The notes under the pieces are model-generated. The model did no database searches. It had not been told where the DNA came from and saw nothing but the letters and a program-made list of their open reading frames with translations. Position numbers and translations under genes: made by a program. A DNA stretch of 43,171 nt, from IMG/VR virus record IMGVR_UViG_2939121850_000002, positions 1 to 43,171 of that record, one strand, 5' to 3'. Positions 34,981-38,091 of this stretch are shown one piece after another; position 1 is the stretch's first letter; the number at the start of each line of letters is the position of its first letter. Source of the stretch: a virus. Taxonomy: Duplodnaviria > Heunggongvirae > Uroviricota > Caudoviricetes.

Positions 34981-35169
34981 TTATTTCCTTAGCACATGAA
35001 ACAATGTTTGCTTTAATTCCACCCATACAATTATGACCACTATAGACAGACAAAAGAAACTGAATGCATTGGCATCACGATCGAAACCTTCTCCGGCACT
35101 AAATCCGTAAAAGGTCATAAAAAATATAAAAATTGCGCACTTTGCAACGTTTACAAATTTTTTCTTCAT
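34981..35169 (-). CDS. Small membrane protein (62 aa), convergent with gp16
   Basis: ATG at 35169 preceded by a strong AAGGAGG; hydrophobic segments; AT-rich. Confidence 0.45.
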   Translation of the reverse strand: MKKKFVNVAKCAIFIFFMTFYGFSAGEGFDRDANAFSFFCLSIVVIIVWVELKQTLFHVLRK

Positions 35170-35199
35170 ACCAACCTCCTTAGTTTTGCGCAGGATACC

Positions 35200-35565
35200 A
35201 TGAAAAAAGTTAACATTGGAAACGTACCAAAGATGCTCGTTCCGCTCTTTGAGAGCGGTACAATTGTGTTTTGTAGAGACTTTCCAGAATGGCAACGCCT
35301 GCATCAAAAACTTGGCGTTGACGTGCAGGACTCGGATGCCAACGGAGCGTCTCATACAATGAGCAGCGAGAATGGTGTTTTGCATGTGATAGGCGTGTTC
35401 AATGGCAAACTATCTACTATTGCCCATGAGTGCGCTCACATGGCATTCGATATCTGCTCAAGGGTAGGTGTTGATGTTGAACCAGGAAGAGCCAACGAGA
35501 CTTACTGCTACTTAATGAGCAGGCTTGTTGAGTTCTGCGAGCGACATATCAAAAAGCCGGAGTGA
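35200..35565 (+). CDS. Small HExxH-motif protein (putative minimal zinc metallopeptidase), 121 aa
   Basis: IAHECAHMAF; divergently arranged ~30 bp from the 62-aa membrane protein gene. Confidence 0.45.
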   Translation: MKKVNIGNVPKMLVPLFESGTIVFCRDFPEWQRLHQKLGVDVQDSDANGASHTMSSENGVLHVIGVFNGKLSTIAHECAHMAFDICSRVGVDVEPGRANETYCYLMSRLVEFCERHIKKPE

Positions 35566-35578
35566 CCCGGCTTGATTA

Positions 35579-35803
35579 TTACTTTTTTTGGTATGTTAAG
35601 AATGGCAAGTCGCCAGTGTACCCCAAGCGGAAAAGCTCCAATTGCTTATCTCTTATGGATAAAAAATAATCGTTTCTTGCCTTTTTAAGCCACAACCAGC
35701 CGATCATCAAGATGAATAATATTGATATTATTGGCATCGGGGAGATCAACACCACTCCGATGAATAATGACGCTAGCAGCACCGATAAAATAGCAGAAAT
35801 CAT
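35579..35803 (-). CDS. Small two-TM membrane protein (74 aa)
   Basis: Two hydrophobic helices; AT-rich. Confidence 0.45.
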   Translation of the reverse strand: MISAILSVLLASLFIGVVLISPMPIISILFILMIGWLWLKKARNDYFLSIRDKQLELFRLGYTGDLPFLTYQKK

Positions 35804-35828
35804 ACTAATCTCCCACTAAGGTAACAAT

Positions 35829-36014
35829 ATGACTATAGAAGAACGTCTGAACAACATTGAGTTAAACCAAACCCTGCTTGACCAGCGACTTTCAGAGCTT
35901 GAACTTAAAGATCTAGATGCGCAAATATCAGAAGCAGAAGCCAAGCTCTCCAGCTTAAACCACCGTAAGAAGCAAATCCGCGACAGAATTACTCGTGGAC
36001 GCGGAGGCTGTTAA
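35829..36014 (+). CDS. Small coiled-coil protein (61 aa)
   Basis: Heptad-like Leu/Glu pattern and basic C-terminus; weak RBS. Confidence 0.3.
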   Translation: MTIEERLNNIELNQTLLDQRLSELELKDLDAQISEAEAKLSSLNHRKKQIRDRITRGRGGC

Positions 36015-36091
36015 GGTGTGATGGTAATCCTTGCTCACTAAATTTAAGGATGCGAATCTTTCCGGCCATAGGAGTAATCATGATTTACCCA

Positions 36092-36628
36092 TCAAACAAC
36101 CCACCAGTTTGCCTGATTGGATACCAGCCTTGCAGTTTTTATGGAATTAATTATGCCATGCTCAAGAGCCTTGTTAGCATCCAAAATGGTCGAGTCTGCT
36201 ATCAGGGATGCCCACCTAATATGGGTTCCGATGTCGATATTGAACGTCTCAACGAAGCGATCAAGATCGTTATCGAGGCATTTCCCGTACTCTCTCAATC
36301 TGGCATGGTCGGCGGCTGGGGTGGCAAAGCCCCATAATAGAGGATGTAACAGGAATCTTGATAATGGGTTTGCGAAACGTTCTGAGCCAGCCAGGAAAAC
36401 GATATTAGCTATGGATTCAACATTGCTTATGTTGTGAGTTCTAACGGTAACAGGGAGTGACTTAAGAAAGTTATACGCAGTAAAACCAGCGGCAGTTTCC
36501 CCTCCCTGACTTGATATATGGATATTTAATTCAGTTGCGCCTTGAGATAATGCGGTGAGACAGTGGTTCTGAAGTTGCCCAACAGTGGCAGTGTTAACGG
36601 GGCATAAGAAATGAATTGTGTGCAGCAT
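36092..36628 (-). CDS. ClpP-fold (Clp/crotonase-type) serine peptidase-like protein, translationally coupled to mnt
   Basis: Aligns by eye to the ClpP catalytic core (Ser in ...NVESIANIVFLAGSER..., His in ...FLLHPL...); its start shares one nucleotide with the mnt stop (TAATG). Confidence 0.55.
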   Translation of the reverse strand: MLHTIHFLCPVNTATVGQLQNHCLTALSQGATELNIHISSQGGETAAGFTAYNFLKSLPVTVRTHNISNVESIANIVFLAGSERFANPLSRFLLHPLLWGFATPAADHARLREYGKCLDNDLDRFVETFNIDIGTHIRWASLIADSTILDANKALEHGIINSIKTARLVSNQANWWVV

Positions 36629-36864
36629 TATTTTTCATCCTTACCATACATGGTTTTCAGCGTCTCAAGCAGCGCATCCCTGAATTTGTCAGCCTCTTTC
36701 TGAGCAAATTCATTGCTATTAAGCGATCTACCACAAACAGCATCTTCGATAATCTGTATTATTTCAGCATTCATGGAACGCTTGTTATGTTGCGCCCTGG
36801 CTTTAACCTTTTCCTTTAACTCTTTGGAAATCCTAATATTTATTTGCGGCTCTTCGCGTGACAT
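36628..36864 (-). CDS. mnt: Mnt-like ribbon-helix-helix repressor (immI maintenance repressor)
   Basis: RHH N-terminus (INIRISKELKEKVKARAQHNKRSMNAEIIQIIEDAV) as in P22 Mnt; divergent from arc-ant. Confidence 0.7.
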   Translation of the reverse strand: MSREEPQINIRISKELKEKVKARAQHNKRSMNAEIIQIIEDAVCGRSLNSNEFAQKEADKFRDALLETLKTMYGKDEK

Positions 36865-36916
36865 ACCACCTCCATAGCATTTTGGTGATATTACTATTGC
36901 ATCACTGCGATCACAA

Positions 36917-36935
36917 TGGTATAACGGTTATACCA
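36917..36935. promoter_or_regulatory. Perfect 19-bp palindrome in the mnt/arc intergenic region (candidate Mnt/Arc operator)
   Basis: TGGTATAAC-G-GTTATACCA, between divergent mnt and arc. Confidence 0.45.
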
Positions 36936-36952: not shown

Positions 36953-37126
36953 ATGATAGTCAAGTCAGACGCACCAAAGTACCCTTTGCGCATCCCATTA
37001 GAGGTTAAGTTAGCAATCGAGAAGTCAGCGAAAGAAAATGGTCGCTCAATAAATACCGAGATGGTAATGCGGTTGGTGGATAGTTTAAGGCGGGATAGTT
37101 CTAAAGGTAATCTAGCAAAAAGTTGA
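36953..37126 (+). CDS. arc: Arc-like ribbon-helix-helix repressor
   Basis: 57 aa with PLRIPLEVKLAIEKSAKENGRSINTEMVMRLVDSL, similar to P22 Arc. Confidence 0.7.
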   Translation: MIVKSDAPKYPLRIPLEVKLAIEKSAKENGRSINTEMVMRLVDSLRRDSSKGNLAKS

Positions 37127-37205
37127 AGCCCCAACTGCGGTAACAGTCAGGGCTTCGGTTGTCGGTAAATCCGTGGAGAAAAACCAACATGAATAGTATA
37201 GCAAT
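37112..37205 (-). ncRNA. Candidate sar-like antisense RNA across the arc-ant junction
   Basis: Minus-strand intrinsic terminator (7-bp stem GAAGCCC/GGGCTTC, then TTTTT on the minus strand) in the arc-ant intergenic region, where P22 sar RNA terminates. 5' end and promoter not determined. Confidence 0.3.
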
Positions 37206-38091
37206 TTTAGAAGCAGTGAACACCTCTTACGTGCCTTTCAATGGTCAGCAAATTATCACCGCCATGGCTGCCGGAGTTGCATATGTTGCGATGAAACCAA
37301 TCGTTGAAAACCTCGGAATGAGTTGGGGTACTCAGCAACAAAAACTTATGAAACAACTAGATAAGTTCAACTGTATTCATATGAATATGGTTGCTGCTGA
37401 TGGAAAGCTTCGTAAGCTACTCTGCCTTCCTTTGAAGAAGTTAAATGGATGGCTGTTCAGCATCAACCCTGAGAAAGTTCGTGCTGACATCCGTGATAAA
37501 CTGATTCAGTACCAGGAAGAATGCTTTACTGTGCTGCATGACTACTGGACGAAGGGAAAGGCAGAAAATGCACGTAAGAAAACATCTGTTGATGACAGGA
37601 CTCCGCTTCGTGATGCTGTAAATATGCTAGTCAGCAAAAAGCATCTAATGTACCCAGAAGCTTATGCAATGATTCATCAGCGTTTCAATGTGGAAAGTAT
37701 TGAAGAGCTTGATGCATCTCAGATACCGCAAGCCGTAGAGTACATCCACAGGGTAGTGCTTGAAGGCGAGTTAATCGGCAAACAAGAGAAGAAAACCAAC
37801 GAGCTTTCTGCAAAAGAAGCAAACAGCCTTGTATGGTTATGGGATTATGCCAACCGTTCACAGGCATTATTCCGCGAACTGTATCCGGCATTAAAACAAA
37901 TTCAATCGAACTATTCCGGCAGATGCTACGACTACGGTCATGAGTTCTCGTATGTTATCGGAATGGCGAGAGACGTTTTAATCAATCACACACGAGATAT
38001 TGATATCAATGAGCCAGACGGACCAACGAATCTTTCCGCATGGATGAGACTTAAGAATAAAGAATTACCTCCTTCAGTACATAACTACTGA
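37189..38091 (+). CDS. ant: Antirepressor Ant
   Basis: [52 protein letters not shown]... matches P22 Ant as recalled; GGAGAA RBS. Confidence 0.8.

Follow-up and report, generated by a model that had tools for sequence, protein, structure and literature searches.

In the stretch of 43,171 nucleotides (nt) analysed here, which covers positions 1 to 43,171 of the IMG/VR virus record IMGVR_UViG_2939121850_000002 (Caudoviricetes) and will be referred to as the window, a clpP-like gene of 178 aa (36092..36628) is joined to a gene for a 78-aa Mnt-like ribbon-helix-helix (RHH) repressor (36628..36864). Both genes lie on the minus strand and share base 36628 in a TAATG junction. Our best joint explanation, to which we assign a probability of about 0.6, is that the clpP-like gene is a phage-borne accessory gene (moron) for an atypical ClpP subunit of the type of Pseudomonas plecoglossicida ClpP1 (PpClpP1), which has become attached to mnt, would be made in the lysogen and would co-assemble with the ClpP of the host, and which is overlapped by a second gene, orf85, on the opposite strand. 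A prophage identical to that of the window is present in E. coli WCHEC025943.

The identification of the 178-aa product as a ClpP-family (MEROPS S14) serine peptidase subunit of the PpClpP1 type is nearly certain. It matched Pfam CLP_protease (PF00574) with 46.7 bits (gathering cut-off 20.2), residues 24-165 corresponding to positions 37-180 of the 182 in the profile. The AlphaFold2 (AF2) model, obtained from an alignment of 36 homologues with a predicted local distance difference test (pLDDT) of 94.1 and a predicted template-modelling score (pTM) of 0.90, has the ClpP alpha/beta fold with the handle helix (TM 0.83-0.95 to ClpP structures). Its best Foldseek match is chain 9uxt_A of PDB 9UXT, which is PpClpP1 (TM 0.95, root-mean-square deviation 1.4 Å, 38% identity), followed at lower scores by Listeria ClpP1/2 and E. 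coli ClpP (TM about 0.83), and phmmer aligned residues 3-175 with 9UXT at E 4.6e-35. Ser72 (codon TCC, 36413..36415) and His95 (codon CAT, 36344..36346), both encoded on the minus strand, align with Ser97 and His122 of E. coli ClpP and with Ser73 and His96 of PpClpP1, and both are invariant in the 36-sequence family alignment. A catalytic Asp was absent from the sequence alignments; the column of the canonical Asp171 is occupied by Ser146 in the window (minus strand, 36191..36193), by Ala or Ser in the family and by Pro in PpClpP1. The ClpP fold and Ser/His core proposed in the first-pass annotation of this DNA are thus upheld by Pfam, AF2, Foldseek and the two invariant residues, but a complete catalytic triad is not. 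The N-terminal axial loops and helix A have no counterpart in the alignment, in which Met1 corresponds to about residue 25 of mature E. coli ClpP. Canonical ClpP gates its pore and docks ClpX/ClpA through these elements, and because they are missing, docking of ClpX or ClpA by the phage protein appears doubtful.

PpClpP1 forms a homotetradecamer with a pore of 42.7 Å and a Ser-His-Pro arrangement, and its peptidase activity is about 13-fold below that of its canonical paralog (PLoS Pathog 2026; PMC12900304). Alone it does not bind ClpX, whereas together with the canonical ClpP (PpClpP2) it assembles into a heterotetradecamer with enhanced ClpX-dependent degradation; deletion of PpClpP1 slows growth, and a housekeeping-like role in growth and motility is described in the paper, which makes no mention of phages or phage relatives (PMC12900304). 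The phage protein resembles PpClpP1 in its length of about 180 aa, in the missing axial loop and helix A, in the retained Ser/His pair and in a third triad residue other than Asp. It differs in that this residue is Ser rather than Pro and in sequence, the 38% identity being that of the Foldseek alignment and the PpClpP1 clade aligning at 35-42%; PpClpP1 moreover has no mnt coupling and no sign of an antisense gene. The Pseudomonas/Azotobacter branch (183 aa) is chromosomal and lies beside genes for a KGG stress protein and DUF6555. A prophage-borne PpClpP1 was considered and ruled out, as its orthologues occupy a conserved chromosomal neighbourhood. The orthologues at loci L017-L021 (Pseudomonas chromosomes) adjoin KGG-repeat stress proteins and DUF6555, a neighbourhood that suggests a stress or stationary-phase role not discussed in the structural paper.

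Canonical E. coli ClpP (PDB 1YG6/1TYF) shares with the phage protein the fold, the Ser/His positions and the SxGG motif of the oxyanion region, but identity is about 21-26% and the phage gene lacks the first ~25 mature residues as well as Asp171; moreover, canonical clpP is a core gene beside clpX, whereas the phage gene is accessory. Several ClpP pairs that form mixed rings, namely Listeria ClpP1/2 (PDB 4RYF), M. tuberculosis ClpP1P2 and P. aeruginosa ClpP1/P2, provide the working model by way of PpClpP1, in that a weak paralog with an atypical triad gains function together with a canonical subunit, and their structures rank with the best fold matches. Unlike in these pairs, in the interaction proposed here the prophage would supply the atypical subunit and the host the canonical one.

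Among phage proteins, the best PHROG match is phrog_94, the phage ClpP-like prohead proteases (5e-21), NCBIfam NF045542 (head-maturation protease) gave 49.7 bits, and the identical gene of phage phiv205-1 carries the GenBank label 'head maturation protease'. Nevertheless, a prohead protease as annotated in phiv205-1 is extremely unlikely, and this reading was rejected on context and on the NCBIfam cut-offs, the GenBank label being a mislabelling. The NF045542 score is far under the cut-off of 120, and the NCBIfam models for ClpP and ClpP-related head proteases gave only weaker, sub-threshold matches. The gene lies in an immI region, on the non-late strand and 9 kb from the head genes, its homologues occupy varied non-structural sites, and the nearest solved relative is a cellular ClpP paralog. 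With the phage ClpP-like prohead proteases (phrog_94; NF045542/NF045540; Stx-phage protease-scaffold fusions) it shares an S14 fold without the unfoldase-docking N-terminus, but not a scaffold or capsid domain or a place in the head module. That module is of the P22 type, with terminase, portal, a separate scaffolding protein and coat but no protease, which agrees with the first-pass view that a P22-like phage needs no such enzyme.

The clpP-like ORF starts on the last base of the mnt stop codon, as had been claimed at first reading and as the coordinates bear out (TAA 36630..36628; ATG 36628..36626; TAATG 36626..36630, minus strand). The mnt-like product matches Pfam Arc (6e-14) and aligns over its full length with P22 Mnt, and its Pectobacterium counterpart matches PF11423 Repressor_Mnt. 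The clpP-like gene has a Shine-Dalgarno sequence (SD) AAGGA (36638..36642, minus strand) within Gly-Lys-Asp codons near the end of mnt, and no terminator was found between the two genes in a terminator scan. A survey of further immI regions, suggested together with the first description, was carried out as part of a census of 101 loci, of which 38 full-length loci are at least 79% identical to the window's gene and 63 at most 74%. The same mnt-coupled gene with the 1-nt junction was present in 37 of the 38, Pectobacterium prophages included, and SD and TAATG are conserved in loci of both the E. coli and the Pectobacterium type. At least three different Mnt DNA-binding alleles are joined to the clpP-like gene in this way, all ending in ...YGKD(E/D/N)K, whereas P22 Mnt ends in ...LYKKTT; it is the former ending that holds the SD. 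Since the junction recurs in 37 of 38 loci with at least three Mnt alleles, it is not due to chance.

The sole exception to TAATG is an E. coli-type locus (L046, position 3745; IMG/VR contig 2565956773_000030), in which 1 nt is deleted from the A-run before the ATG (aaaata for aaaaata), so that the mnt stop moves 34 nt into the clpP-like gene. The mnt gene itself is mosaic. Homology breaks near 36709; the last ~27 codons together with the clpP-like gene are 97-99% common to other prophages, and the N-terminal DNA-binding part of mnt differs between them. One coupled allele is identical to P22 Mnt over about 55 residues and is followed by the same C-terminal end and clpP-like gene.

The surroundings correspond to an immI region of the P22 type, with divergent mnt and arc-ant genes, an operator palindrome over a Pant-like site and a sar-like terminator, placed between an upstream gene for a gene-16-type DNA-transfer protein and the downstream tailspike gene. 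The arc-like gene (36953..37126, plus strand, 57 aa; Pfam Arc 2e-12) is followed by ant (37189..38091, plus strand, 300 aa; phrog_245 anti-repressor Ant 2.7e-96). Between them lies a minus-strand intrinsic terminator of the sar type (37125..37156) consisting of a 14-bp stem and a T run, and in phage epsilon34 the homologous site carries an annotated sar. The predicted Pmnt-like promoter (36888..36916, minus strand; -35 TTGTGA 36916-36911, -10 TAATAT 36893-36888) and the predicted Pant-like promoter (36897..36925, plus strand; -35 TTGCAT, 17-nt spacer, -10 TATAAC) face each other, each matching 8 of 12 consensus positions in a relaxed scan. A perfect 19-bp palindrome, TGGTATAAC-G-GTTATACCA (= TGGTATAACGGTTATACCA), extends over 36917..36935, overlapping the Pant-like -10 and abutting the Pmnt-like -35, and is probably the operator of this Mnt allele. 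We take the position of Pmnt and the layout of Pant, Pmnt and operator to mirror those of P22, and the palindrome presumably differs in sequence from the P22 Omnt. All of these elements, the palindrome over the Pant-like -10 and the gene 16-tailspike interval included, are thus alike in P22 and the window; unlike the window, the P22 records match over arc-ant only and show nothing at the clpP-like gene or orf85.

A small RHH gene directly upstream with a stop/start overlap is a layout typical of type II toxin-antitoxin operons, and a toxin-antitoxin-like pairing of the RHH protein with the peptidase had been put forward as one of several roles. Such an addiction module is very improbable. The RHH protein is homologous to Mnt over the full length, tetramerisation tail included, its gene is divergent to arc-ant with the Omnt-like palindrome over Pant, and different Mnt DNA-binding alleles have been swapped onto the same protease. 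In addition, the characterised homologue is not toxic, its deletion slowing growth. The census led us to reject this reading, as the pairing is limited to one clade (37 of 38 loci) and none of the 63 loci of at most 74% identity has an RHH gene within 1.5 kb.

Outside the mnt-coupled clade, the gene was found in about 17 other phage clades as a stand-alone gene on the strand opposite to its neighbours. It lies between Rz/LysC and the terminase genes in lambdoid prophages of Klebsiella and E. coli, between N and erf/ssb in Proteus, and between tail-fibre and lysis genes in a myovirus-like prophage of Chromobacterium, and no antirepressor was among the annotated genes of these neighbourhoods. 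At locus L006, a promoter-like site precedes and a terminator-like site directly follows the clpP-like gene. The gene is present in 126 of 5,426 complete E. coli genomes (2.3%), always on the chromosome and named 'ATP-dependent Clp protease proteolytic subunit' by the Prokaryotic Genome Annotation Pipeline (PGAP), the count comprising those of 128 matching genomes that hold at least 80% of the gene at at least 95% identity. Relatives are encoded on 114 IMG/VR viral contigs, a scan of GTDB species genomes yielded three loci, and identical genes occur in phages phiv205-1, E212, EC.P3 and lambda-like PhiR12 phages. The family thus appears as an autonomous unit at three insertion sites, opposite in strand to its neighbours and patchy in distribution, its expression being predicted. 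The stand-alone context of the loci of at most 74% identity argues that the enterobacterial branch is, as judged by genomic context, a moron rather than a virion gene, and that its coupling to mnt arose secondarily, in one clade.

Within that clade, the junction travels with the C-terminal domain of Mnt among P22-like immI regions and also into lambda-like tail regions. The whole ant / arc / mnt-clpP cassette is found between the lambda-type tail genes L and K of phage PhiR12_1 (PV340549.1; locus L002, 3525-5537). This location implies transfer of the immI module, protease gene included, between phages of unrelated types, among them viable lambda-like phages.

The mobility of this cassette, with the junction remaining next to arc-ant even in lambda-like phages, would also fit a protease that tunes the immI switch, for instance by breaking down Ant or Arc that arises through leakage and so backing up Mnt, with which it is presumably co-expressed. 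We consider this improbable. Many P22-like immI regions function without the gene, the same mnt allele being followed by other genes in some of them, and the clades of at most 74% identity have neither an RHH gene within 1.5 kb nor an annotated antirepressor nearby, so that the function of the family is not specific to Ant or Arc. Processing of Ant or Arc, which had been suggested at first reading along with the toxin-antitoxin pairing, is weakened by this distribution in the same way.

The stand-alone loci bear as well on the proposal that the protease is an anti-phage effector of the prophage, acting in superinfection exclusion or abortive infection by destroying a protein of the incoming phage or a host factor. 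This is a possible though unlikely explanation, and it could coexist with co-assembly with host ClpP. The insertion sites of the gene match those of lysogen-expressed exclusion and conversion genes, namely sieA downstream of mnt in P22, bor in the gap between Rz and terminase in lambda, and sieB next to N. The opposite strand, the promoter-like and terminator-like sites of its own and the patchy occurrence in 2.3% of E. coli genomes are in line with such a role, and the likeness to phrog_94 hints at possible interference with the capsid assembly of other phages. Arguments from position alone are weak, however, and the only characterised homologue is housekeeping-like in growth and motility. 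No PADLOC-DB v2 family matched the protease at E<=1, the only weak match (PDC-S02) being to Mnt, and the literature searches produced no supporting paper.

The 3′ 246 nt of the clpP-like gene (codons 98-178) are overlapped on the plus strand by orf85 (36080..36337, 85 aa; phrog_7758 1.6e-61), which runs antisense in the codon-aligned frame and is preceded by the SD AGGAG (36070..36074, plus strand) 5 nt before its ATG. The first-pass annotation had overlooked this gene. At first we viewed orf85 as a shadow ORF, because a codon-aligned antisense frame is naturally poor in stops; this view was dropped after a within-gene control, a census of SD and ATG, an analysis of single-nucleotide polymorphisms (SNPs) and the finding of free-standing copies. 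Stop depletion was tested in 19 phage-borne clades, all less than 80% identical to one another, with the 5′ part of the gene as the control. Of the 328 Leu/Ser codons in the 5′ part, 126 (38%) are of the kinds that read as stops in antisense (TTA, CTA, TCA), as against 23 of 207 in the 3′ part (11%; P=1e-12), whereas control A-ending codons amount to 29.5% and 24%, respectively. Twelve of the 19 clades have an ATG in the orf85 frame at a distance of 3-12 nt past the sense stop, and in eight this stop is followed directly by CAT; GGAG or GAGG usually stands 4-8 nt upstream of the ATG, even though the clades have unrelated flanking sequences.

Within the E. coli clade, the periodicity of SNPs flips along the gene. 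By sense codon position they number [1,0,10] in codons 1-97 and [7,3,0] in codons 98-178 (P=3e-5), and of the ten 3′ SNPs seven are synonymous for orf85 and one for the protease. When the window is compared with Pectobacterium, synonymous differences drop to 25% in the 3′ half, from 63% in the 5′ half, and amino-acid differences rise. Two P22-like contigs (L107 and L108), in which immI is absent, are similar to the window over the orf85 span only; there, what is left of the clpP-like frame lacks the N-terminal part and has a stop at Trp175, while orf85 is intact with an SD of its own after a hairpin and differs from the window mostly at its third codon position ([8,4,14]). E. coli 09-00049 has other sequence in place of the 5′ part of the clpP-like gene, and its orf85 is annotated by PGAP (WP_157924994.1). 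Stop depletion, the SD and ATG, the SNP flip and survival without the sense gene together indicate that orf85 is not a shadow ORF and, on this comparative evidence, behaves as a real, selected gene. The flip is confined to the mnt-coupled E. coli clade; in the stand-alone clades the orf85 frame is kept open and its sequence is without visible constraint, so that translation of orf85 alone may matter there. An explanation by Rho polarity or "translation only" may fit those clades but fails to explain the E. coli clade. AF2 gave no confident fold for orf85 (pLDDT 54 on a shallow alignment), and annotation pipelines rarely call the gene. It resembles antisense overlapping genes of E. coli such as ano (PMC5960689; PMC9927249) in being a coding ORF antisense within an annotated gene and missed by pipelines, and differs from them in that its support is comparative rather than from Ribo-seq, in its codon-aligned frame and in its location on a phage late-gene strand.

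Since orf85 survives alone in L107/L108 and E. coli 09-00049, and since the 3′ SNPs follow its frame, the clpP-like ORF of the E. coli clade could be a decaying passenger with orf85 as the selected unit; truncated clpP-like variants (L061, L062, L074, H103) would agree with this. Such decay is nevertheless improbable, even slightly more so than a role of the protease in the immI switch. Among 18 alleles, the 5′ half outside orf85 shows 10 synonymous SNPs and 1 non-synonymous SNP, and this excess demonstrates that the clpP-like gene is maintained by purifying selection on its 5′ half. Furthermore, the 537-nt ORF is intact in 35 of 35 full-length E. coli-clade loci (phage records and IMG/VR), all but two of the 128 matching complete E. 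coli genomes carry nearly the whole gene as counted above, the sense changes sit at positions that vary in the family, and both SD and TAATG are still found in Pectobacterium.

Replacements of the 5′ portion of the clpP-like gene recur, in L105 (E. coli 09-00049; 3489-4589), L061, L062, L074 and H103; L105/H77, L061 and L074 share a breakpoint corresponding to window position 36463 (codon 56). The mnt stop of L105 lies in a 4-nt overlap with an unrelated gene of 105 aa. From these recurrent replacements and the gene swap in L105, we conclude that accessory genes are exchanged at the position downstream of mnt.

Taken with the identity of the protein, these data are consistent with the following sequence of events in the lysogen, in which the protease acts as a PpClpP1-type subunit. 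Transcription would start at the Pmnt-like promoter and the protein would be made in step with Mnt. Lysogenic co-expression with Mnt is likely; the first-pass statement that it proceeds from the immI promoter is plausible, because the layout of promoters and operator resembles that of P22. By analogy with its homologue (PMC12900304), the protein would form heptameric rings of the ClpP type whose pore is wide open and whose own activity is low. Most probably it would act by co-assembly with the canonical ClpP of the host, a mixing that we regard as plausible by the same analogy, altering ClpXP- or ClpAP-dependent proteolysis in the lysogen, and the benefit to the prophage could lie in phage exclusion, prophage stability or host stress physiology.

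P22 late transcription passes through immI to gene 9. As orf85 lies on the same strand as the flanking late genes, it is probably made in the lytic phase, in convergent orientation to the mnt-clpP transcript of the lysogen, and protease and orf85 would be expected from opposite strands in different phases of the life cycle. This arrangement invites a more elaborate, speculative scheme that we consider rather unlikely, in which the two form a pair switched with the life cycle: the Pmnt-driven subunit would invade host ClpP rings and reprogram proteolysis by ClpXP/ClpAP, a proteolytic kind of lysogenic conversion or exclusion, and in lytic growth the late transcript would pass antisense through the gene and express orf85, which, having arisen by overprinting opposite the handle and C-terminal half of the protease and later become independent enough to outlast it, would silence or antagonise the protease.

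Several observations weigh against the preferred picture of a lysogen-made subunit that mixes with host ClpP. A stricter promoter scan reported neither Pmnt nor Pant, both being found in the relaxed scan only. Ring assembly and mixing are extrapolated from a homologue of 38% identity that resides in a chromosomal stress-gene neighbourhood and not in a phage. Finally, the 3′ half of the gene has 10 SNPs in the E. coli clade, 9 of which alter the protease sequence, and the C-terminal half, including the handle region, may be under relaxed constraint.

The clpP-like gene is already annotated in RefSeq and does not encode a new kind of protein. The first-pass annotation knew of no ClpP-like gene in described immI regions; in this it agrees with the literature searched, where searches for a ClpP gene in immI, prophage ClpP, phiv205-1 or E212 found nothing relevant, but the databases contain the gene as well as the solved homologue 9UXT. 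Within the literature searched, the phage-borne branch of truncated ClpP proteins, its capture into the mnt operon of immI and the selected antisense gene inside it appear to be undescribed. They place PpClpP1 in a wider, largely phage-borne family, and the locus provides clear comparative evidence for a long overlapping gene in antisense orientation in bacteria. Because the ATG of orf85 lies outside the sense gene and sense-silent Leu changes can create antisense stops, both products are genetically separable.

ClpP is a central bacterial protease and a drug target, and, to our knowledge, every paralog described so far as entering ClpP rings is encoded on a chromosome. Should temperate phages indeed supply such a subunit, expressed from the promoter by which lysogeny is maintained, prophages could adjust the proteolysis of their hosts, with possible effects on antitoxin turnover, RpoS, SOS products and the replication or repressor proteins of other phages. 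Lysogenic conversion or exclusion would then have a new route in about 2% of E. coli genomes as well as in several further genera of enterobacteria.

Downstream of mnt-clpP, the first good minus-strand terminator is a strong, bidirectional terminator-like hairpin at 35554-35573 (AAGCCGG...CCGGCTT, with T runs on both strands). For this reason the Pmnt transcript could run about 500 nt beyond the clpP-like gene, through an uncalled hydrophobic ORF of 74 aa on the minus strand (35579-35803) that has a promoter-like site of its own (35827-35799). The interval between gene 16 and the clpP-like gene (34981-36014) contains several small genes of unassigned function, among which no sieA homologue was recognised. 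They include a 62-aa ORF on the minus strand (phrog_21338) and, on the plus strand, ORFs of 121 aa (phrog_1365) and 61 aa (phrog_7586), the latter encoding a coiled-coil protein.

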